NCBI GenBank assembly: GCA_003990765.1
Contig: RBNJ01000211.1
Location: 1 to 36,645, forward strand
Direction: 5' to 3'
DNA: 36,645 nucleotides
From: Jimgerdemannia flammicorona
Taxonomy: Eukaryota
In this document: in pieces, positions 2,853-30,599 of the stretch
How the letters are laid out: each line of letters begins with the position of its first letter
How positions within the stretch are numbered: position 1 is the first letter of the stretch
Program-made: the position numbers and the translations under genes
The notes under the pieces: model-generated
What the model was told of the DNA's origin: nothing
The model's database searches: none
What the model saw: only the letters and a program-made list of their open reading frames with translations

Positions 2853-5800
2853 ATGGGCACCTTATTGCCAACCTTTGCAGGATACCCAGAGGAAGACCCC
2901 AGAGAATTCCTTGATGGAATTGAAGGAATTGCAGCCTTGAGGAATCTCTCAGATGAAAGAAAAATTGCCATCTACAAGGCTCAGCTCAGAGAATTAGTCA
3001 GAGGAATTTTCCACTGAACAGCAAATGACCCAGATTCAGAACTGGTAAGACAGATACAAGTAGCAGCATCTTATGAGCTAGAATATGTGGCCATGGTCCA
3101 CTAGCTCATTGAAAAGTATACAGGAAATGAAACCCACCACAAGGCCTAAGAATCCATCATGGGGATAAAGATAAATCTTGGAGAATCACCCAGAGCCTTC
3201 TTTACAAGAATCCAGAAGAGAATGCATGCTGCTGGATTCAATGCCATCAACCAGGACATTATAGGTCCAATAACCTTCATGAACAGAATTCCCCTGAACA
3301 TTGCCCAGCATGTCTGTACCCTAGGCATCAGAAGGTCTGAAGAGCAAGTAGATGCAGTCCAAGAATTCTTTGATGTCAGATAAGAAACTACCTGGAGTGA
3401 CCATGACAAGAAAGAAGATAAAGAAGACATCCTGGTCAAAGTCCTATAAGGACTCTTCTAAGGACAAGAGAGATCTGAATAAAGAAGGCTAGCTAGGGAA
3501 GGAAAGAAGGACAGAAGTGAAATTCAAGACCTCAGCTCCAAGTTGGACCAATTGGTTGGACAGATTGAAAAACTCACCACATGCGAAAATCAGAGCTACC
3601 AAGACAACAGAGGATACTCACCACAGAGAAGCTAAGGTTATTCACCAAGAGTCAACAGGAATTACCAGCAAGAGGAAAGAAGGTACCCTGTCCAAGATAA
3701 AGCACAAGTCCAATGTTTCCACTGTAGACAATTAGGATATTATGCTACTGAATATAACAATAAAAGAAGTGACCAAAGGGACTCAGAATCATAAAACTGA
3801 AGAAATAACACTTAGTACAAAAAGACTGAAGCTCATCCTGTCAAAGATTTCAAGGAAGCAAGCAATAGTAAAGACTACAGTGATCTAGACTTATACCCTA
3901 CTAAGGTTACCACTCAGAAAACAGTCTATCCAGTGGAGAAAAGGAAGAGACTTGTAGGAAGACCATCCAGGAATGTCAGTAGAAGAATCATCTAAGAAGA
4001 AGATGAAGAACATGAGGAAGAACAAGTAGAAACACCTCCCTGAACTCCCTCACCTTTTGTCCCTGAGACAAACAAGTTGTTACCAGAAGATAAAGAAATG
4101 GAATAAGAAGAATGGGAACCTGCTACCCCAAAGCCCAAAAAGAAGTACACCCCAAAGACTATGCTCAGAGACATCTACAATGAAGTCTAGTAGAAGATTC
4201 AAGAGACCAAGATGGAAGTTCCTCTCCTGCAGTTCCTGCAACTGATACCAGCTAGAGTTTGAAACAAATTGCTGAGAACAACCAGATCTAGCACTGGCTG
4301 AGTCCCAATCCCACAGCAAGAACCAGTCCCCTTCCCTGTCCAAGCAGCTGAAAGACATGTCAGCACCTACCTACATGGAGATATTGGAGGACAAAAGGCA
4401 AAGATCCTTATAGACACAGGAGCAGCTGTCTGTATCATTGCCAAACAGTTCCTGGACACCCTCCAATGGCCCATTGATGGACCATCTAACCTCAGCATCA
4501 TAGTAGTAGATGGAGCCTGAATCCAACCCCTTGGAGAAGTACAAAATATCACCATCTCCCTTGGACACATTCAGTTCTCTATCCCAAAAGCAGTTGACAC
4601 TGAGGCTGTCACCTATGACATGATTCTTAGCACCAACTGGATGAAGGAAATGAATGCAGTTGTTGATATTGGTCAACAAGTACTCAAGTTTGACTACCGA
4701 GGCAAGAAGTACAGAGTTAAGATGACTAGCTATGAGCAATCGAAGAAGAAGAAGAAGGTTACAGGAGGAATATGCCAGTAGCGAAGAATCTACCACAGAA
4801 GAAGAGGAAGAATCTGAAGATGGAAATGATCCCAGACTCAATCCCTGAATTAACCTGGTAGATGACAGACCAGAAGACAATGTGTGGGCCAAGAACATCA
4901 TCCCTATCACCATTGGAGCTATTACAGGAGAAATCAAAGGATGCCCTACCTGCCTCAAGAGACACAAGTGTCCCAAGCATTCCTCCAAGATCATGGGAAT
5001 AAGAAAATCGCCTTGCACAGCCTGCCCAGAGTGCAGAAAGAAGAAGAAGAAATGCAGACATATTCCAGAAACACCTACAACCAAAGCTGCAGAAGTACAA
5101 GCAATTTGGGATCAAGAATCATCTGAGGAAGAAGAAGCTCCTGATCAAGAAGTTCCTGAACAAGAAGTATCTGAAGAAGAAGAGGTTTCTGAACTCATTC
5201 TATAGGATGACCCTTGGAATATAGAAGAAGGACCCAGCACAATCACCATTATCTCCAAGAAAGAAACTCACTAAGAAAAGGCTTTTTGACTAGGAAGATG
5301 TCCACACCAAATGATTTTCCACTCTCCTCGAGACTATTGCTATCAGTGCCATCTACTAGACCAATAGGAGAGACAGAGACCCCAGAGACCAGAACCCCCA
5401 AATACACTTATACAGTTAACCACCTTCCAAGAAGTTACCACTAAGCTGCAGAGTTGATTTAGAGGACAAGGCTTCTTCACCTGAACAGAAATATATCCCT
5501 TGTCTACTCTCCCTCCAACTTATGACCAAGATGGATACTAATTCCCTAGACAACAAGAGATAAATAGCCAGGAACATCATTTTCAAGCAATGGGATATTG
5601 CAACCATGGGAGACACCCTGACTGCCAAGACTGCAGACATCAGAAGATTCACCTCAGTCATGATGTTGTAATCCATACTTTAAAGAAAGGAGACAACAGA
5701 GGCCAGATCCAAAAAAGCCAGACCAAGAAGCCAGAAAGAAGAATCCTCAAGATCTATGATTTGGGAGAAGACATCTAAGCTCTCATCAGACATGCAACCT

Positions 5801-8432
5801 GCCAAGGATGGGCAGAAGATGCCACCAACTTCATGGAAGCCCTAGACCCTACAGGAAGAAGAGGAATCAACTATCTCCGAGATCCCTCTACTGGAGCCAG
5901 ATGGCCACACCTCAACCTTAGAGCTTGGAGGCTCTCTTCTAGTGGAGCCTCAGCCTAAGGAAAGACCGAACTTAGCAAGGATGTTGCCCAATATACCCTG
6001 CTACACCCTAAGGCCAAACCTCTGACCAAAGCCCACCTAGAGGATGTAGGGTATAATCTTCATAGTCTGGAGGATGAATCCATCAAGCCCAGAAAAACAT
6101 TTATAATCAGAACCAAACTAGTCATGCAGTCACCTCAAGGAACTTATATACAACTGACCTAAAGGTCTGAACTTGCCAGATAAGGAATAACTGTGGAAGG
6201 AGGAACCATTGACCCAGGATATACAGGCAAAATCAAGGTTATCCTACACAACAGCAGTGCAGAATGGCACTGAATCATTAGAGGACAGAAGATTGCCCAA
6301 GCAGTCTTCATGAAGGTCAGAACTCCACAATTATAAGAAGTGTCCAAACTAACTGAAGGATCAAGACAAGTCAAAGGATTTGGAAGTTCAGACAAGAAGG
6401 AAGTGCATCTCCTTCAGGTCAACCACCTCAAGAGAAATGCTCCCCAGCAAGTATACTGTCAACCAGTCAAACTGTATAAGAACCTCATCCTGGAGCCTGG
6501 AGAACAAACCACCTTTGAAATCTTTACACTGCCTGACCTCAGAAACCTTTTCTTTGAACCCAAAGAAGATATCTCATACCTGGACATAGAAGGACACACA
6601 TTCCCTGATAAGATGAATCCAGTACACTCCCGAGCAACCAACCAAAGTTGGGAAACCATCATCTTGCCAAAAGGAACCATCATAGGACATCTGGTGCCTT
6701 TTCTCAACTGAACTCATAGGGAAGTTTATGAACTAAACCTATCAGAAAATGGCAAAAGGTCCCAGAAGAAAGAAAAGGCCCCTCTGTAACCCAGGAGACA
6801 GTGAAGCCTTCCACCAACATTGGAGAAGAATTGATACTCCAACAATAGCAACAACTAGTAGAACTTCTCAACAAAAATCAAGATATCTTCACCACTGATT
6901 ATGGCAACCTGCCATACAATCCATCATACCACCACAGCATAAATACAGAAAATGCAACACCCATCTGGCAGAAACTCTATAGAATACTCCATCACTTGAA
7001 AACATTCGAAAAGGAGCACATTCAAGAACTCTTAGACAATGGAGTCATCTGACCATCTACTAGCCCCTGGGCCAGCCCTATACTTATTATACCAAAGAAA
7101 GGAGGATGGAGACTCTGTATGGATTACAGGAAACTCAATTCAGTCACTAAAAAGGATGCCTATTCTTTACTCAGAATCAATGACCTTTTGGATCAATTAT
7201 AAGATACCAGATACTTCAGCAGTATGGACCTTTTTGCAGGATTCTATGGACCCCAAAGACATTCAAAAGACAGCCTTTCTTACTTTAGGAAAACTGTTTG
7301 AATATCTCTGAATGCCCTTTGGACATTGCAATGTACCTCCCACCTTTTAGAGGATGATGAATTCAGTCTATACCTCCTTGATCTACCACTGCCTGATTAT
7401 ATATATAGATGATTTCAACATCTATTCAGCAAATTTTGAAGAACACCTGCACCACTTAGAGGAATTCTTCAAGCTCACCTACAAGAACCACTTGAGATTG
7501 AATATAAGGAAATGCTACTTTGGAAAACAGAAACTTGAATTCCTTGGATTTATAGTTTCGAAAGAAGGAACCCATGCAGACCCAAAGAAAACTGAGAAGA
7601 TTAACAACTAGCCAGTACCCAAAACCCCAAAAGAAACATTATCATTCCTGGTGCTAGTATTCTACTACAAAAGGTTCATCAAGGACTTTGCCCAGAATGC
7701 TGCCCCTATCTGAGTCCTTCTCAAGAAAGGAGTACCTTACAAATAGACAGAATTACAAGAAAAAACCTTCAAGGAACTCAAGAACTGCATGACTACAGTA
7801 CCAATTCTTATATACTCCAATCTGCAGAAGCCATTTATCTTGTATACAGATGCTTCTAAAGATGGCCTCAGAGCAGTTCTAGCCCAAGAAGGACCTGACC
7901 AACAATACTATATGATAGCTTATGCAAGTTGAGCTACCAATCAGCAGCAGATGAACTATGGTAGCACCAAACTGGAATGCCTTACAGTCATTTGGGCAAT
8001 CACTCTGTTCAAGCATTACCTCATTGGAAAAAGGTTCACCCTGATCACAGACCATGTAGCCCTCAAATGGCTATTCAACCACAAGAAACTCACCGGAATC
8101 TTAGCCTGCTGGATCCTTATTCTTTAGGATTATAAAATCACCATTATCTACAAAGCAGGGAAAGCTCACAACAATGTTGATGTACTTTCCCACCAGCCCC
8201 AATGAATTAGAAGAAGGGTGTCTCAAGGAACCACACCCTAAAGGAAGCTCCTCAGACCATCAAGGTATAAGAAGATCTCATCCAAAAAGAACATCAGAAA
8301 GCTCACCAAGGACAGGCGAATATAGAAGAGAAGCTGCAAACAATACACCAACATTGGCCTAACCTCAGAACACAAGTCTGGGATATACTCAAGAAATGTG
8401 ACACCTGCCAGAAGTACTAAGGAAGGAAGAAC
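2853..8432 (+). pseudogene. E1 gag-pol, 5' part: capsid, Zn knuckle, aspartic protease, Cys-rich insert, dUTPase, RT, RNase H, integrase Zn finger
   Basis: PTFAGYPEEDPREFL (2853+), QCFHCRQLG (~3710), ILIDTGAAV (~4405), SPWASP/DYRKLN (~7060-7140), YIDD (~7405), YTDASKDG (~7845), KCDTCQKY (~8395). Many stops of CGA/CAA/TGG origin. Confidence 0.95.
5986..6390 (+). pseudogene. dut: dUTPase domain of E1 (between protease and RT)
   Basis: Motifs DVGYNL, RSELA, GGTIDPGYTG, KIAQ and RQVKGFGSS, i.e. the five trimeric dUTPase motifs in canonical order. Confidence 0.92.
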
Positions 8433-8520
8433 TAGTGCTCTGAATGGATGGAGTTGATCTGGATGAGATTTGATTCAGATTCATCATGTGATGGATTCAA
8501 ATCAACTCAGATTGGTCTTG

Positions 8521-8666
8521 TGATCTGATCCAGATTGATCCAGATTGATCCAGATTGATCCATCCAGATTGATCCATCTGGATTGATCCGGATTGATCTA
8601 TCTGGATTGGTCCATCTGGATTGGTCTATCTGGATTAGTCCATCTGGATTGATTCATCCAGATTGA
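8521..8666. repeat. hAT left subterminal repeats (GATCCAGATT / GATCCATCTGGATT units)
   Basis: Tandem 10- and 14-bp units next to the TIR. Confidence 0.85.
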
Positions 8667-8828
8667 AATCTTTAGTGACATCACCCTTTCTTTTGTTCAT
8701 TTCACTCTTGTTTTTTTTTTCCTGCTGCACTTTGGTGACATCACCCTTTTCTTTTGCTCCCTCTCTTCTTTTGTTCTTTTCTTTGTTCTTTTTCTTTGTT
8801 CTTTTTCTTTATTCTTTCCTGCTGCATC

Positions 8829-11048
8829 ATGAGCAAACAAAACAGCAGCCCTTAATTTGTACGTTGGTCCAGTCTACTCATTTTTCACCCTATAATGATC
8901 ATCAAAAGAGAGAGTATTCGAGGTGGAAATACACTCTCTGCTGACAATGTTAGATTCTTTCTCATATGGACAGTATACAAGCTGCTCATTGAGAGCCAAA
9001 GGGGTGATGGTGGTGGTGGTGGCAATGGTGATGGTGATGGTGGAGATGAGGGAGAATTCTGGCAACAACTCACAGCAGCCCTTCAGACCTCAGAATTTAC
9101 AGACCTCACAGCTATGTACACAGCAGCCTTTTTGGAGCAGCTGATAGTAGATGTAGGTTGCTCACTCAGCTGCCACTTGTTTACTTGTGTTTATTTAAAC
9201 TTCCCCAGCATGACTTAATTCATCTCGTGCTTTTCTTAGGGTCCACAGCTCTATGGCAAGATCTGCCAACTTTATTTGCAACATCTGGTCAAGATGAAGA
9301 AAGGCTGGCAGACATTGTGGGGCATGCCTTTGGTGGCTGAGCTATTGAGTCAATACATCACATGGTAGAGGTCTCAAAAGGAATAGAAGTAAGCCTTTGT
9401 GAGCAATCTTGTGCAACTCGTGCAACTTGTCAGCATGAAACTTGTTGGCATGCAGCTCACTTACTCACTCACTCATGCTCTTTTTCTGAAATACCCATCT
9501 CTATGTTTTATTTAATTTTATTTTTACATAGTCTCCCCCTAAAAAACATCCACACCCATATGCAACCTGTCTGCATGCAACCTGCCTGCATGCAATCCAC
9601 CTGCACACAATCTGCCTACATGTAATCTGCCTACATGCAACCCACCCGCAACCTGCCTGCACGCAATCCACCCATACACAACCCACTCACCTACAACCTG
9701 CCTGCATGCAACCTGCCCGTAACCTGCCTGCACGCAACCTGCCTACATGCAACCCACCTGCACACAACCCATCTGTATGCAACCCATCCACATACTTATC
9801 TTGGTCCCTCAGATCAGGGCTCAGTTTCATTGGAAAGGAGAGTTCAAAGTTATCTGAGTTCAACCACATCCGGCATCTGATCAAATAGAGAAATTTGAGG
9901 GCAAGATGTTTAGCATAAGTAGTACCAGCATTGTCATCAAGGCTTAGGGGTCTACATTCGAATCAGAGCCAATCGAACTTGACCAAGGGGTCCATTGGCC
10001 AGTAGGAGTAACTAATGATGAAGAGAACCATATCTTTATTAATGAATGTGGAGAGGTGGTTGTAATGGTGGTAAGGAACCTCTATGGCGATGAGCTTTGC
10101 CACCATATCAACGAGATTTACAAGGATTGTGTCAAATACCAGGTGGTAGGAAAGAGGGGGCGAAAAAAGCAAGGAGGGGAGGTTTGGACAGGAATTAGGT
10201 ACATATACTGCAACACTAGCAAAGGGTGGGTTCTGGAGTTCCAAAATCCCCTGCACTCATCTCTCTTTTTTTTTAACCCCTCCCCAGATAAATCACACTC
10301 TTTGCTGACATACTCTTTTTGATACAATTCCAGGAATGCACAAGATTCTGTACCCCTATCAGAACTTTAGAAGTGCCATCGAAGAGCAAACTGCATATGA
10401 GTACAACATGGCCTGTGCAGTGATGGTGGCTATAATCTGGGGTTCTTTGAGCAGATTAGTAGAGCATACAGCAGGCCAGCTTAGTGGTGATCTCGGTGCA
10501 GCTGTACATATATTCTTGGTGCAATTTAGTATGCTATATGAGGTGAGGAGCTCCACTTTTTCAGGGTACTGCAGCCCAGGAGGTTTCTGCCCCCCTACAT
10601 GCAAAAAGGACTAACCGGTTGGCATCTGTTTTGGCAGGTTTCTAAGCTGGGGCTCCTGGGGCTGCACCAAGAGCAGGCATCCACCAGCATAGCCTGGCAG
10701 TATGAGATTCTAGGCCAAGGGTTCACCCAACTGTATGCTTGCATCACATCAGAATATGTTGGGTGCAACCTTTCTCTACCCACACACACAGACAACAATG
10801 TCACCCCAGTAATGTTTTATATCCCGGAAAGGAAGGGCCCAATCTGGGAGGATAGTGGCGAAGTCTGGTATGACCTCACCTATAGTTTTGGGGTCCTATT
10901 TATAGCCAACACAGCTGTCCTATTCCAACCACATGACCACCATGGTACTGTTGCCTTTGAGGAGAGCTCAGACACAACAGTTGTCACACTCACAACAGAT
11001 GATAGGCTCATCAAGGCCTGGGACTGGCAGGTGGAGCAGTTTTTGTAA
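8829..11048 (+). pseudogene. Multi-exon cargo gene: putative TET/JBP-like 2OG-Fe(II) dioxygenase
   Basis: Plausible GT-AG introns (donors ~8859, 9153, 9389, ~10225, 10543; acceptors 9239, 9812, 10333, ~10637). The last exon is open, with H-T-D (10785-10793), GEVWYDLTYSFGV..NTAVLFQP and distal HGT (10941-10949). Upstream exons contain stops. Exon model is approximate. Confidence 0.65.
9560..9792. repeat. 15-bp minisatellite (GCAACCTGCCTGCAY) in a predicted intron of the cargo gene
   Basis: About 15 degenerate tandem units between donor GTAAGC (9389) and acceptor CCCTCAG (9812). Confidence 0.85.
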
Positions 11049-11101
11049 GGGTTAGGCAATCTTTCGCAAGGGTTAGGCAATCTTTCATGAGGGTTAGGCA
11101 G
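11047..11101. repeat. Three tandem copies of AGGGTTAGGCA(ATCTTT) directly after the cargo stop codon
   Basis: Direct reading; roughly 21-bp period. Confidence 0.8.
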
Positions 11102-11356
11102 CCATTTTGTGTAGGTTGGGCAGTCTTATGTAGGAGGGTTGGGCTGGGCATCTCTTATATAGCACTAGCTTAGCCATTATATAGGGCCCTACCAGCCCCT
11201 CAGCCCTGATCTTTAGTGCCGCCAGTGCAGTACTGCGGTGCAGGGCCGGGGTGCCCATGGGACCTGAGCCAGCAACTTCGACTATCAGAAACACCCTCCG
11301 ACCACCAGAAGCACCCTCCGACTGCCAGAAGTACCCTCCACCCTGGACTCCTTGGC

Positions 11357-11805
11357 AGCTTGGGGCTGCCCCTATGCCACTGGCAGAGGGCCACAAATTT
11401 TGCGCACTCCCTCTGCCTGCCCCGCCCATCCTGGATACTTGTGGCTTGGGGCTGCCCCTTGCTGTCAGCAGAGGGCTGCAAATTTTGCACACTCCCTCCA
11501 CCAACCCTGTACCTGCCAACCCACCACCGACTCTGCCTACTGACCTGGATGCTGACAGCTTGGGGCTATCTCTCGCTGCTGGTAGAGGGCTGCAAATTTT
11601 GCGCACTCTCTCTACCTACTCCCCCAACCCAGACACTTGTGGCTTGGAGCTGCCCCTTGCTACCAGCAGAGGGCCACAAATTTTGTGCACTCCCTCTACT
11701 GACCCACTGACCTGCCCACTGACCCACCCACTGACCCAGGTACTGGCAGCTTGGGGCTGCCCCTTGCTGCTGGCTGAGGGCCACAAATATTGTGCACTCT
11801 CTCTG
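11357..11805. repeat. Five ~58-bp GC-rich repeats separated by C-rich spacers
   Basis: Unit GCTTGGGGCTGCCCCT...AGAGGGCY.CAAATTTTGYGCACTCYCTC at ~11357, 11442, 11557, 11639 and 11747. Confidence 0.85.
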
Positions 11806-11936
11806 CCGCCAACCCCACCCCACTTGGACTGCAAACTCCAGACCGAGTCCTCAGGTTTTTGTTTCCTTTTTTATTATTTTGAAAGGTATTAAATATTCCA
11901 CAAGGCCAACCATCTTATCTGCAGACCTACTGAATT

Positions 11937-14365
11937 TTAGCAGCCTAAGCCCCACCAAGACTTTAGACACATACATGCCCAGATTGTCTCAGTATTCAGT
12001 GCACACCTCTTTGGGACAATGAGGTCTACCCCACCTGAGAACACCCACTCGATGGGAGCGCTGGAGGCAGGAATCACCAGATAGTCCCAAGCCATACCAT
12101 ACAGGCTGGAGAAGTCTGTTTAATGCAGCTGCATGCCTTGGTGGATAGAGAAGTGGTTAGATTAGTGGGTTAAATTGGCCCAACGCCCACCTGATAACCC
12201 ACCTTCCACCAGTTGAGTACCTCCATGCCCTCCAGCAGAACCATGCAGTCACTGACAAGGTAAATGGTAAGTTCATCTATTGATGGCAGCTCTTCCACTG
12301 ATGGCTCCCTCTTCCTCTTTCTGCTGAAGTAAATGTGGAACAGGAGGGATCCCTTGGTATATTCGTCCAGACTTCAGCCAGAACCTTGCAGTGGTGCATA
12401 GTTTTTCTGGTACCCAGCCCTGATCTTTATGGTATTATAGCTTTAAGCATGGGTCCAGCACTGTTTGAAGAAAAGGAGAGTGAGTTTTTGCAGGGTTTCC
12501 TTTGTTTTGGAAGGGGCAATGGCCACATACTGACATCGACATACTTGTACTGATTGAGTATATGGCAGTATCTGTTTGGGAGTAGTATTTTCTGAGCTTA
12601 CTTAGAGTAACCTCCATGGCATCTCTCTGATCCAGGCTTAACTGTAAATCACTGCAACCCTCTAGCCTGTCCTTGAGCTTGTCCTCTAGCCAGTCAATCA
12701 GAAGGTTATATACTGGTATCGCAGAGCTTATTGTTGGGGTTGTTTGTTTGACTATATTCTTTATATAATCATCGAAATACTGGTAGTTATATGTGGTGAG
12801 ATGTTGCATTGTATAGAGGCAGACAAAATGAGTGTGGAGCCAGAGCAACTACTACTTACTTCCAAAACTCTGACAACATTCCTAAGTATGTCCCACTTGC
12901 TTTCACCTAGAGCCTCGGCCCATATTTCCTTGTCAGCAGCCATCATTGAATCTATTGGCTTTTTTTTTTTTTTTTTTTTTTTAAAAATAAATCTTCCATT
13001 ATCCGAAACAGTTACTTCAGCTGACTGAAGAAAAAAAGGATGCATACTACAGCAAACTCCAGCACATGCTGGATCATTGCAAATATTGAGTTCCAATGCA
13101 TACAGATATCCAATATAAGCTCTTTTGGGGCTAAACTAATTGTCCTACACTGTGCAGTAAATTTGTCTTGTCATTGTGGAGATGATCAGACTGACACAAC
13201 CAGTTTGTGCAGCTTGAAAATTATACTCAGGGCCCCTCCTCTCTCGGATGTTTTGTCTATGTGCAAAAGATAGTCCTGAATAGCAAGGTTCAGTATGTGG
13301 GTCTGATATCGCACACAGCAGCTTTCTGCACTGAAGGCCACATTTTCCTGTTTGAGGCTGGCTGCTAAAACTTGAGTTGTTTGTGGCATTGTCCATCATA
13401 ATGATCAAAATCTGTACTTGAAATATTTGGTCAGCAAATTATGTAAAAATAAATAATCAACAAAATCTGTTTTGTTTAAAGACCTCCCTCAAAACGCCAA
13501 CCTGATGGCAAGCCCCCCTTTTTTTACCTTGGTTGTGATCCCAAGCTCCTGGATACAACTAATAAAAGCATCTGTAATGTTGTCTCCAGAATGAGAGCCA
13601 GCAAGTTTGACAAAGTCAAGGGTGAGAGATTTAAGCTGCCAATTGAGGTCAATTCAATAACGGGTAATGCCTAGAAATGAAATTGCATTGAGGGATGTCC
13701 ATGTGTTGATTGTAAATAAAATTTTACCTGCCGAATTCTGCTTATTGAATGTAAGATTAAATTGGTGAGCTCTTTTATATAATTCAGCTTGCAAAGGTCA
13801 TAGTGCTGCCCTTATTTTACCTGAAGTATCTGGTGGAGATTGTCATGCTCCTTCCTATAGGCCTCCAGGACATCTTTGCGAATAGTATCAGCACTTGGCA
13901 AATATAAATCATGCTTGAGGAGACCAAAGATGCTATGCAATTGATCACTCTCGATAGTTGTAAATGGCTGGTCTGTATATACAATCCAGTGAATGAGCCA
14001 ATTTCGAAATTCTGCTGAAAAGTATGGCTAAATATTTTTGATTAAATGGCATTGTTGGTATAGAAATGGTTGGGCAATTAGATAAATGTACCCACCATAG
14101 CTTGGATGTCAATTTTATTTGTCTCCATATTCTTTTTGATTTTGTCAGAGTACTTGTCTTTTATGTGTCAATTCATGTTCAAGGTCATACTACCAAGCAT
14201 TTTGAACTTCTGGCTGGTGCAGTTTATGAGGATGGATGAAATAATATCATATGTGTGTCAAACAAGTCAATAGGTGTATCTTAATTTTTTACCTATAATA
14301 ATTACAAACAACATCATCTCCTATCTTAGCACAATATTGCCAGATTTTGGAGCGAGGATTGTGTG
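11937..14365 (-). pseudogene. hAT transposase (BED zinc finger, DDE core, C-terminal dimerisation domain), intron-containing
   Basis: RSKIWQYC..VVCNY (BED), DQPFTTIE, FTINTWTS, LAGSHSGDNI, MMDNATNN, HILNLAIQ, HWNSIFAM, VLDPCLKL, DYLVIPASSAPIEWVFS, CMCLKSWW..stop 11937-11939. Start codon not determined. Confidence 0.92.
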
Positions 14366-14544
14366 GAAGGTGTGGAACTATCAGAGATGTTTGACTTGAA
14401 GCATCATCAGTACTATGAACTGTTGAAGACTGATCTGTCAACATGTGTGTTTGCATGTTTGCATGTACATGTGTGTGCATGTGTATGTATTGTATATGCA
14501 TATGTATGTATTGTGTTATGGATGTGTCCAGCATATGAGTCATG

Positions 14545-14785
14545 TGGATGATTTGGATTGGAGGATTTGGTTGAAGAATTCAGATGAGAATTCAGATTGG
14601 AGGATTCAAATTGGAGGATTCGAATTGGAGGATTCAAATTGGAGGATTTGGATTGAGTAATTCGGATTGAGTGATTTGGATTGAGTGATTCGGATTGAGT
14701 GATTCAGATTGAGTGATTCAGATTGGGGTGGTTTGGATGGGTGATTCGGATGGGGCGATTCAGATGGGGTGATTCAGATTAATCT
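14545..14785. repeat. hAT right subterminal repeats (GGAGGATTCRAATT and GATTGAGTGATTCR units)
   Basis: Tandem 14-bp units preceding the right TIR. Confidence 0.85.
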
Positions 14786-14860
14786 GAATTGATTCAGATC
14801 AAACTGTCATGTGATGAATCGAATCTGGATTTGATTCAAATTGACTTATTCGGAGTATTA

Positions 14861-15705
14861 GGAAGAACTATCAAGCACCATTACAACCAATCGCACCACC
14901 AGACAACATCCTTCAGAGATGGGGAATAGATGTAATTGGACCTCTACCAGTTATACTAAGAAGAAATAAATACATTCTTATATTTGTGAAACACCTGACC
15001 AAGTGGCCCAAGGCTTTCCCAATGGAAATCACAGATGCCTTAACCATTGTAGGCCTTCTCCATGGACTCACACTCAGATATGGACTCCCAGAAGAACTTA
15101 TCTCTAACCAAGGCACAGAATTCATCAATAATATAATCACAAGTTATGTCTGAATTCACAAGATCTACCTCAAATGAATAATATCATACCACCCTCAGAC
15201 CAATAGTATGACAGAAAGAATGAACCAGACCATCAAGAAAGGACTTGCCCAAGTCAATCCTATCAATTGGGATCTCTGCTTACCTGAGATCTTATGGGAA
15301 ATTCAGAACACCCCTGCTACCTCCACCAAACAAAAGTCATTCGAGATGATGTTTGCCAAGAAAATCAGAACTGCTGACCATGAGAATCTTGGAGACTTCT
15401 TCAAAAAAGCAAAACAGTTACATAATCAAGCCCAAGGTCAGATTATCAAAGTATAAGAAAGATAAAAGAAGTATTATAACTAGAAACAGAAGGATCAGGA
15501 GATCAAGATTGGAGATCAAGTACTAGTTTGGAGAAGTATAATTGAAACAAATTTTACCGCCAAACTGGAGCCCAAATGGGAAGGACCTTATCTTATATAC
15601 AACATCAGAGGAACCAGCATCTATTTAAGAAGTATGGATAGACGAACCCTGAGGACACTAGTACACATCAATTGCCTCAAACTATATCTTCCTTCTACAC
15701 CATGA
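14861..15705 (+). pseudogene. E1 pol, 3' part: integrase core and GPY/F
   Basis: FQRWGIDVIGPLP, LISNQGTEF, YHPQTNSMTERMNQTIK, KLEPKWEGPY. Stop TGA 15703-15705. Confidence 0.93.
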
Positions 15706-28735: not shown

Positions 28736-30599
28736 TGTGATGTACACAACTGATAATACTGGAATAAGGAAGCAATGATGATATATCTTGCAATCACCTT
28801 AATCAAATAATAATCCCAATCTTATAGTATGATAATCAGATGATACTGTCTGATGATCCATTCAATCTATTAGGAAATCTGACCAAAAGAAACAATAATA
28901 ATCTGAGTTAAAATAAAGGCCATATTATTTAAAGAACCTAGACCCAGTATGTCAAGAAGAATCAGAACAAATAAAAATACAATACTTCCTTTTTACTACT
29001 TCAACCAGACCTTCTACCACAGTACTCCTTTACTAAGTCTGAAGAGTCTTGTCCTCAAAGCCATCAAAATGGCTATCTGGTGCTCTGATACTACTGAGCA
29101 TCTGAACTTCTATACTGAAGACCTTGGATATTTTATCAACTACTACTATATAATGACCCAGAAGTTCAAGAATACTACTGACTAAATGACTCTCTGGCAT
29201 GACTATAAAATTGGACACTACCTCTATAATGAAGCCCAAGAAGATGACCAGGAAGACCTTATTGCCAAACTATTAACCACTAACTGGCTGATCAAGAGAG
29301 CTCATCATGTCAACCAAATCTTCCACTATATACTCTGAGCTATAGCTTACTTATCAGGAGTTACTACTAGAAACATAGTCTGCCTCACAACTAAAGAAGT
29401 TAATTGGATGAAAGCTGAAGTTGCCAATTATATTAGGAGCAATATATTACTATAGAAAGTCAATAAACTGAATCCACTCTACCAGGCTTCCATACTACCC
29501 CTCTCTGAGATAACTATTAAGGCCATCTAATAAGTCTTATGGAAATCTTTGAAGGACTACTCGTTACTGTTGAAGTATCTGCAGGAGCTACTATGACTAC
29601 CCATTACTTCATTAGTTATATATTACATCACATTGTATAGAAATCAAACCAAGAAGTCTCAGAAGCTCCTATCTAAGAAAAAGAAGAACACTAAGACTCT
29701 GTCATCAAAACTATCATAGTACCTCAAGATGCCCAAACTGATGAATTCCAAAAAGAAGAATAATAAAGAATCTACTAGTCTTCAGTCTGCCTTCAAGCTA
29801 TGCAAGGGTTAGAGAATATCATTGAAGATGATTGGCCACTATTTTATCTTCTCACTTCTTGGCCAGCACTTTCCCTCTTTAAAGAGTAGTATGATAAAGT
29901 TACAATCCAACAAGGTGATTTGCTTATCACTAGTGAAGGATATCATGCCTTTTAATATAGAGATCAACATTCTTTGCCAGCAGTATAGAATAAAGATATT
30001 TCAGTCTTATTTGATTTAGTTAGTATCACTCTTCATACAAGTATATTATAGTTTAGCCAAATATAGAATAGCCCTCTCATTACCTAAACATTTTTTGTCA
30101 GCAATACAGAATAAGAGTATTCCAACCTTACTCTTACTATCTCAGAAATTGATATGAAAATTATTACAAAACTCAAGATATGAACTACTACTACTATGAA
30201 AATTATTACAAAAAGATACAAGTCAAACTGCTACCATATAAATTGGATACAAGATCTCAGATCACACAAAATTCAAAATACAAGATCACCAACTTGCCAG
30301 GAAACTTTACTAAGAATACTAGGATAACTGTCAGTATACTAGAATCTATAATATATGTACTTTCACCTTCTGCTATTCTAAATGTCTAGTCATATAATTA
30401 ATGACTTGTGATATGCAAACTTCAATGATATGTAAACTCCAACTTGACATGAATGAGAAATACAAACAAATCAAACAGTAGTTGAACTGAACATTGAGCC
30501 AGAACATTATCAGATAAAAAGATAAACAGTATATAAGATAACTAAGTAGTATATTAAGCAGTGCATTCTGCAAGCAGGACATACAAATTACATATCACA
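28736..30599 (+). repeat. E3 putative 5' LTR (1864 bp)
   Basis: Perfect 6-bp inverted termini. Starts where the host pol stops and ends 3 nt before the PBS. The second LTR is not available for confirmation. Confidence 0.75.
28949..29530 (+). pseudogene. Degenerate ORF inside the E3 LTR, possibly related to ORF3 of E1/E2
   Basis: Frame continues past isolated stops: ...HDYKIGHYLYN...KRAHHVNQIF...IAYLSGVTTRNIVCLT... Confidence 0.5.

Follow-up and report, generated by a model that had tools for sequence, protein, structure and literature searches.

The 36,645-nt stretch of Jimgerdemannia flammicorona DNA analysed here (contig RBNJ01000211.1 of assembly GCA_003990765.1, positions 1 to 36,645, hereafter the window) contains a dead copy of a hAT transposon that lies in the integrase region of a Gypsy-type retrotransposon and carries a passenger gene next to its transposase. 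This passenger, which we call the cargo gene, is read as five exons at 8829-11048 on the plus strand and is convergent with the transposase. Most likely it encoded a divergent DNA-base dioxygenase of the TET/JBP type, and we put the probability of this reading as a whole at about 0.65. The preliminary description of the region, made from the letters of the sequence, had already proposed an intron-containing second gene convergent with the transposase inside a hAT element, and as an account of the region it proved right on all points that could be checked.

The element is a single hAT insertion of 6,428 bp (8433-14860). It is bordered on both sides by the same 8-bp target-site duplication (TSD), GGAAGAAC, the left copy lying at 8425-8432 and the right copy, an exact match, at 14861-14868. 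Immediately inside these stand the 13-bp terminal inverted repeats (TIRs), TAGTGCTCTGAAT at 8433-8445 on the plus strand and its partner TAATACTCCGAAT at 14848-14860 on the minus strand. The two TIRs differ at three positions, all of them transitions, and the end-to-end inverted similarity extends about 100 bp inward. Both termini can be written as TAGTGCTC[C/T]GAAT, inverted, with the element starting TAGTGC. By itself the TIR is weak evidence, since a search of the window with this pattern at up to two mismatches gave three matches against 0.61 expected and three matches also arose in 3 of 100 shuffles; the third match, at 29432, is unrelated to the element. The boundaries are settled instead by the exact 8-bp duplication flanking the unit together with the effect of excision, as deleting the element plus a single copy of the TSD in silico joins the flanks into one continuous, integrase-like frame belonging to the host (...KCDTCQKY*GRKNYQAPLQPIAPPDNILQRWGIDVIGPLP...). 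Hence the TIR- and TSD-based boundaries claimed earlier hold. A 7-bp reading of the TSD was rejected because the termini would become asymmetric. Membership in the hAT superfamily is borne out by the 8-bp TSD, the short TIRs and a C-terminal dimerisation domain in the transposase.

The transposase remnant occupies 11937-14579 on the minus strand, as judged from Pfam matches and the list of open reading frames (ORFs), and has fallen apart into numerous ORF pieces that lie in different frames. The dimerisation domain (Dimer_Tnp_hAT, PF05699) lies at 11937-12119 on the minus strand with an E-value of 1.3e-9 (38.1 bits; cut-off 21.4). The seven other pieces of the eight tested gave no relevant Pfam match; as candidates for parts of an RNase-H-like DDE core, the motifs ...MDNATNN... 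and ...C.RY.THILNL... were noted by eye in the transposase pieces. The cargo gene and the transposase are arranged tail to tail, with 3' ends at 11048 and 11937, and about 900 bp of tandem repeats separate them.

The cargo gene begins with an ATG at 8829, and exon 1 extends to 9152, its 3' end being approximate. Exon 2 (9240-9388) has an uncertain 5' end at either 9209 or 9240. Exon 3 (9813-10225; NHIFINECGEVVVMVVRNL...KRGRK...) encodes the N-terminal part of a conserved domain and corresponds to about residues 92-183 of P0005, the full-length relative described below, and exon 4 (10334-10542; MHKILYPYQNF...), which is open, corresponds to about residues 167-240. The catalytic half resides in exon 5 (10638-11048; ...PTHTDNN...FQPHDHHGT...DDRLIKAW). 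Its translation confirmed what had been noticed before, namely an open last exon with THTD and a distal histidine in FQPHDHHGT. The HxD motif is formed by a His at 10785-10787 (H50) and an Asp at 10791-10793 (D52), the distal His is at 10941-10943 (H102), and HHGT follows 50 residues past THTD.

As had also been noted, the upstream exons contain stops. We found a TAA at 8853-8855 in exon 1, a TGA at 9338-9340 in exon 2 and two further in-frame stops at 9855 and 9945 in exon 3. Furthermore, no in-frame combination of exons 3 and 4 through canonical GT-AG introns was obtained among the sites scanned, so a frame defect between them is likely. Counted together, the lesions of the cargo gene are four in-frame stops, a single break of the frame and the replacement of a conserved Arg by Cys. 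Both genes are destroyed, and the copy is a dead, pseudogene-bearing fossil.

In view of this decay and the stops in the upstream exons, the HxD...H arrangement might be fortuitous and the ORFs might be non-coding transposon debris. We searched exon 5 with HMMER against 1.84 billion representative proteins at E<=0.001 and obtained six matches, five of which are real relatives: P0002 (78% identity), P0003 (51%), P0004 (35%), P0005 (34%) and a weak one, P0007. The sixth, P0006, is a 412-residue repeat protein that reached an E-value of 8.5e-6 through four short stretches; it is a low-complexity false match and was left out of the alignments. Word-indexed protein searches with P0005 and with the family profiles A2 and A6, the last at E<=10, returned nothing beyond P0005, P0022 and P0002. 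The window is collinear with the 374-residue, full-length P0005 in three segments (9999-10289, 10333-10581 and 10698-10958). Across the family 17 columns are invariant, both His residues included, and HxD is found in the window and in its relatives; the Asp of this motif is present in all members except P0004, and a locus near-identical to P0004 has it.

That locus, L001 (1-3666), came from a metagenome scan which returned two loci, both on soil-type contigs, the other being L002 (1-2870); the two are 99% identical over 2.7 kb. On L001 the homologue of the cargo gene is uninterrupted; it has at least three exons, its introns are short and AT-rich, and the contig has a normal CpG observed/expected ratio (o/e) of 1.2. 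The homologue on L002 has two in-frame stops. L001 and the window have introns at three common positions, namely ahead of R[AH]QF, at ...G|MH... and ahead of the last exon. The same motifs in independent proteins at 34-78% identity, an intact three-exon version with the same intron positions and the three-segment collinearity with P0005 effectively refute a fortuitous origin of the motif. On the evidence of these sequences the cargo is a real, rare and conserved gene family with HxD...H.

The affinity of this family was assessed by profile-profile alignment. The reference was an alignment of seven phage proteins, all relatives of mycobacteriophage Cooper gp2. Each of them matches PF12851 (best E-value 1.1e-6), yet below the Pfam gathering score, and against the PDB their profile finds TET2 at an E-value of 0.0044, NgTet1 at 0.016 and CMD1 at 0.76. 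With hhalign, the cargo family aligned to the phage set over 69 columns with a score of 35.6-35.7, an E-value of 4.3-4.6e-4 and a probability of 33-34%. The alignment pairs HxD with HxD, the downstream RxG with RRG, GG with GG and the distal HG[ST] with HGV. Column shuffles of the family alignment (n=100) reached at most 20.6 with a median of 14.1, and the reversed alignment gave 17.0. Among equal-sized control alignments, AlkB scored 14.3 over an irrelevant stretch of 26 columns and YbiX/PKHD scored 19.5, covering the GG...H half only, while three known dioxygenase families scored 23.4-24.8 against each other. Hence, in these profile comparisons, the catalytic core of the cargo aligns best with TET/JBP among the three dioxygenase families tested. 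The ESM Atlas gave a lead in the same direction: for P0005 the top cluster (0.96, 211 of 256 features) is from Basidiomycota and has PF20515 on 15% of its members, and a phage PF12851 cluster ranks 11th at 0.91.

Several results weigh against this assignment. At E<=10, Pfam, with PF12851 (Tet_JBP) and PF20515 included, returned no relevant match for six pieces of the window, P0002-P0007, P0022 and three exons of L001, so that the comparison with Tet_JBP profiles proposed in the preliminary description came out negative. A sequence search of the PDB with P0005 and the family profiles A2 and A3 gave 0 matches at E<=10, and exon 5 of the window found no usable match in the ESM Atlas, where named clusters only were compared. 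AlphaFold2 models of P0005 had a mean predicted local distance difference test score of 36.5 with a 6-row and 37.8 with a 10-row alignment, which is too low for the fold to be read. Finally, hhalign assigns a probability of no more than about one third, and this comes from a very shallow profile (Neff, the effective number of sequences, of 1.5). The TET/JBP-like reading therefore stands in part, carried by an hhalign score above all controls and by the Atlas lead, and its expected counterpart in direct Pfam or PDB sequence matches did not appear. We regard the affinity of the cargo to TET/JBP as moderately supported and probable.

These negative results could also be explained if the cargo were a dioxygenase of the 2-oxoglutarate/Fe(II) type that lies outside TET/JBP and does not act on DNA, for example a small-molecule or protein hydroxylase that had been picked up by the element. 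The C-terminal half aligns generically with the YbiX/PKHD hydroxylase, at the score of 19.5 given above, and the canonical Arg after the distal His was not found in a manual count. Passenger dioxygenases published for fungal DNA transposons are, in the accessible text of PMC12730594, all TET/JBP. Furthermore, the Tet_JBP alignment covers both metal motifs with a score, 35.7, above that of every control, and the Atlas leads are to the PF20515 and PF12851 clusters. We therefore consider a dioxygenase outside TET/JBP unlikely and retain the TET/JBP assignment.

The arginines around the active site bear on the same question. In NgTET1, Arg224 precedes the HxD motif, whose His we take to be His229, and the cargo family has an Arg shortly before HxD in four of six sequences, seven residues upstream in P0003, P0004, P0005 and P0022. 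In the window the codon at this position (10764-10766) is TGC, for Cys, and P0002 has His. Cys and His are the two products that CpG transitions on one strand or the other would make of an inferred ancestral CGC codon, which points to independent decay of two copies at the same CpG. According to the CMD1 structural paper, two strictly conserved arginines hold 2-oxoglutarate in TET2 (R1261/R1896) and in NgTET1 (R224/R289), whereas in CMD1 the second Arg points away and vitamin C is used, not 2-oxoglutarate. No member of the cargo family has an Arg 10-17 residues past the distal His (manual count), the stretch that holds the 2-oxoglutarate-binding Arg in TET2, in NgTET1 and in the phage enzymes, a result that adds to those speaking against a TET/JBP enzyme. 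By manual count an Arg does occur at +20/+21 after the distal His in four of five subfamilies, and a greedy extension of the hhalign alignment, which has no confidence, places Leu, Val or Gly opposite the phage Arg of YRxS. In these low-confidence or by-eye alignments the family shows no counterpart of TET2 Arg1896 and NgTET1 Arg289, and searches detected no sequence match between it and characterised TETs.

Since no Arg was counted at the usual position for the C5-carboxylate of 2-oxoglutarate, a different co-substrate or chemistry is conceivable. In a tentative and rather doubtful extension of the TET/JBP reading, the cargo would represent a fourth, undescribed TET-like type borne by transposons, with a layout like the PE type discussed below, with HxD, and invisible to the Pfam TET profiles. 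It would have been captured by a hAT lineage with an 8-bp TSD independently of the hAT7 elements of Puccinia, and it might use a different co-substrate or chemistry on methylated bases, in the manner of the algal CMD1 and vitamin C. Were the odd co-substrate site genuine, enzymologists could find the family of interest.

A separate question is whether the gene belongs to the transposon. It might be a one-off capture of a host gene fragment (transduplication) or a separate nested element, and not a functional component of a transposon family. A single copy was examined, the 36,645-nt window holding no second copy of the element, and no transposase occurs within the 2.9-3.7 kb available around the homologues on the short contigs L001 and L002; it is on these two observations that such a reading draws. 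TET as a regular passenger is documented for seven transposon lineages in PMC12730594. The cargo gene appears complete, with five exons from ATG to stop, and fills the space from the left subterminal repeats to the 3' end of the transposase, and it is not bracketed by any of the 25 longest pairs of inverted repeats. Moreover, CpG decay is alike in the cargo gene (o/e 0.16) and the transposase (0.17), which fits one age for both. We judge a one-off capture or a nested element to be quite unlikely and prefer the view that the gene travelled as cargo of the element.

The preliminary description stated that no pairing of hAT and TET had been described. This claim of a first example falls, because Kojima 2025 (Biology 14:1741, PMC12730594) describes seven lineages of DNA transposons in rusts that carry TET/JBP genes. 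One of them is hAT7, for which twenty TET-encoding families are reported from six species of Puccinia. Three types of TET (PU, AG and PE) are defined there, and the enzymes are proposed to counter methylation-based silencing, a proposal that is experimentally untested according to the same paper (PMC12730594). Like the window element, hAT7 is a hAT transposon in which a TET/JBP-like gene accompanies the transposase, and it too resides in a genome whose repeats undergo methylation-driven decay (PMC12730594). The two differ in several respects (PMC12730594). The TSD of hAT7 is 7 bp in contrast to the exact 8 bp found here, and the one hAT7 end seen is CAACGG... rather than TAGTGC. In the P4 lineage of hAT7 the TET and transposase genes share one orientation, with TET upstream, whereas the genes in the window converge. 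The hAT7 enzyme is of the PU type (...GWRK...H.D.D.N.W...), and by eye the window protein is without those motifs.

A closer likeness, again by eye, is to the PE type, whose carriers in the accessible text are Zisupton, IS3EU, EnSpm and Plavaka as well as Helitron elements in Pezizomycetes and Agaricales (PMC12730594). The PE type and the window family have in common the order N[YH]IF[VI][DN]...E[IV]V..[VA]RN near the N-terminus and R[KG]....G....SAG, followed by GG.[FW][FY]....[YF][GS]......[AS]N....[WF].P...HGT[TSV] and a late ..RL (PMC12730594). Like the cargo family, the PE type is barely detectable with profiles (HHpred E-value 1.4 to CMD1; PMC12730594). Its hallmark is HxE, in contrast to the HxD of the window and its relatives, and the accessible text does not report the PE type on hAT elements (PMC12730594).

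Among characterised enzymes, human TET2, NgTET1 of Naegleria, CcTET of Coprinopsis and CMD1 of Chlamydomonas have the HxD...H triad in common with the cargo family. Iyer et al. reportedly found, in 2014, that KDZ (Kyakuja/Dileera/Zisupton) and Plavaka transposons of fungi have TET/JBP genes as passengers; these elements differ from the window element in both their transposase superfamily and their TET types (AG, PU). The window element looks like a different, undescribed version of the published hAT-TET arrangement.

The surrounding DNA shows the strong cytosine decay that had been attributed to it. Over the whole window the CpG o/e is 0.078, with just 112 CpG in 36.6 kb; all NCG contexts are depleted (0.035-0.108), and TpG (1.21) and CpA (1.15) are in excess. 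The ratio is 0.19 within the hAT element and 0.09 and 0.03 in the left and right flanks. As judged from this difference, the hAT insertion postdates the onset of decay in the host retroelement.

The Gypsy-type retrotransposon that received the hAT element in its integrase region is thus the older of the two. In the mode of action that seems most likely, active relatives would express one gene from each end, on one side a transposase, by which the unit is cut out and pasted, and on the other a TET-like oxidase. This oxidase may turn 5-methylcytosine into oxidised forms on the DNA of the element itself and perhaps in its vicinity; silencing would thereby be eased, and the deamination to thymine that underlies C-to-T decay would become slower. 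The copy in the window later lost both genes. The substrate, the anti-silencing role and the place of the cargo as a regular part of the transposon family are inferred.

A transposon-borne eraser of DNA methylation would be a direct counter-measure to genome defence. As the phenomenon is already in print for fungi (KDZ, Plavaka and seven rust lineages including hAT7), the present case adds breadth and no new principle. It would provide a second hAT lineage that is built differently and whose TET-like gene is divergent. Standard profiles miss such divergent cargo, which suggests that passengers of this kind are under-counted in annotation. The copy studied here, surrounded by DNA with a CpG o/e of 0.08, may be seen as an element that lost its contest with genome defence.

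The remaining features of the element are repeats. A left subterminal array at 8521-8666 consists of 10-14-bp units (GATTGATCCATCTG) with inverted matches to the right subterminal array, which repeat analysis located at 14545-14780 and which is made of 14-bp units (TGGAGGATTCGGAT). The left units are presumed to bind the transposase. Just upstream of the first ATG of the cargo gene, direct reading reveals a pyrimidine-rich tract on the plus strand (8680-8828) with tandem units at 8762-8817, a possible promoter or 5' untranslated region. The 424-nt intron 2 includes a tandem array with periods of 15, 45 and 71 bp (9560-9784). The region between the convergent genes (11047-11810) holds 21-bp and 20-bp tandem units together with repeats of about 100-200 bp, the arrays at 11286-11810 being composed of the 20-bp units and the longer repeats.

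On the metagenomic contig L001, the ORFs downstream of the cargo homologue (2320-2945) had no Pfam match, and short GATTTGA-like repeats resembling hAT subterminal arrays lie near its right end at about 3500-3610. In a sequencing-run index, 10% of the sampled words occurred in one soil-metagenome run, and no RNA run was listed.

The window is composed almost entirely of decayed retrotransposons. The element that took up the hAT insertion, a decayed long terminal repeat retrotransposon of the Gypsy type, was noted at 5500-8432 and, beyond the insertion, at 14869-15700; in its pol region a dUTPase-like stretch can be recognised by eye at about 6160-6330 (...GGTIDPGYTGKIKVIL...). A second decayed retroelement copy at 23098-24944 matches RVT_1 (PF00078) with an E-value of 6.2e-11 and dUTPase (PF00692) with an E-value of 1.9e-4, the latter just below the cut-off.

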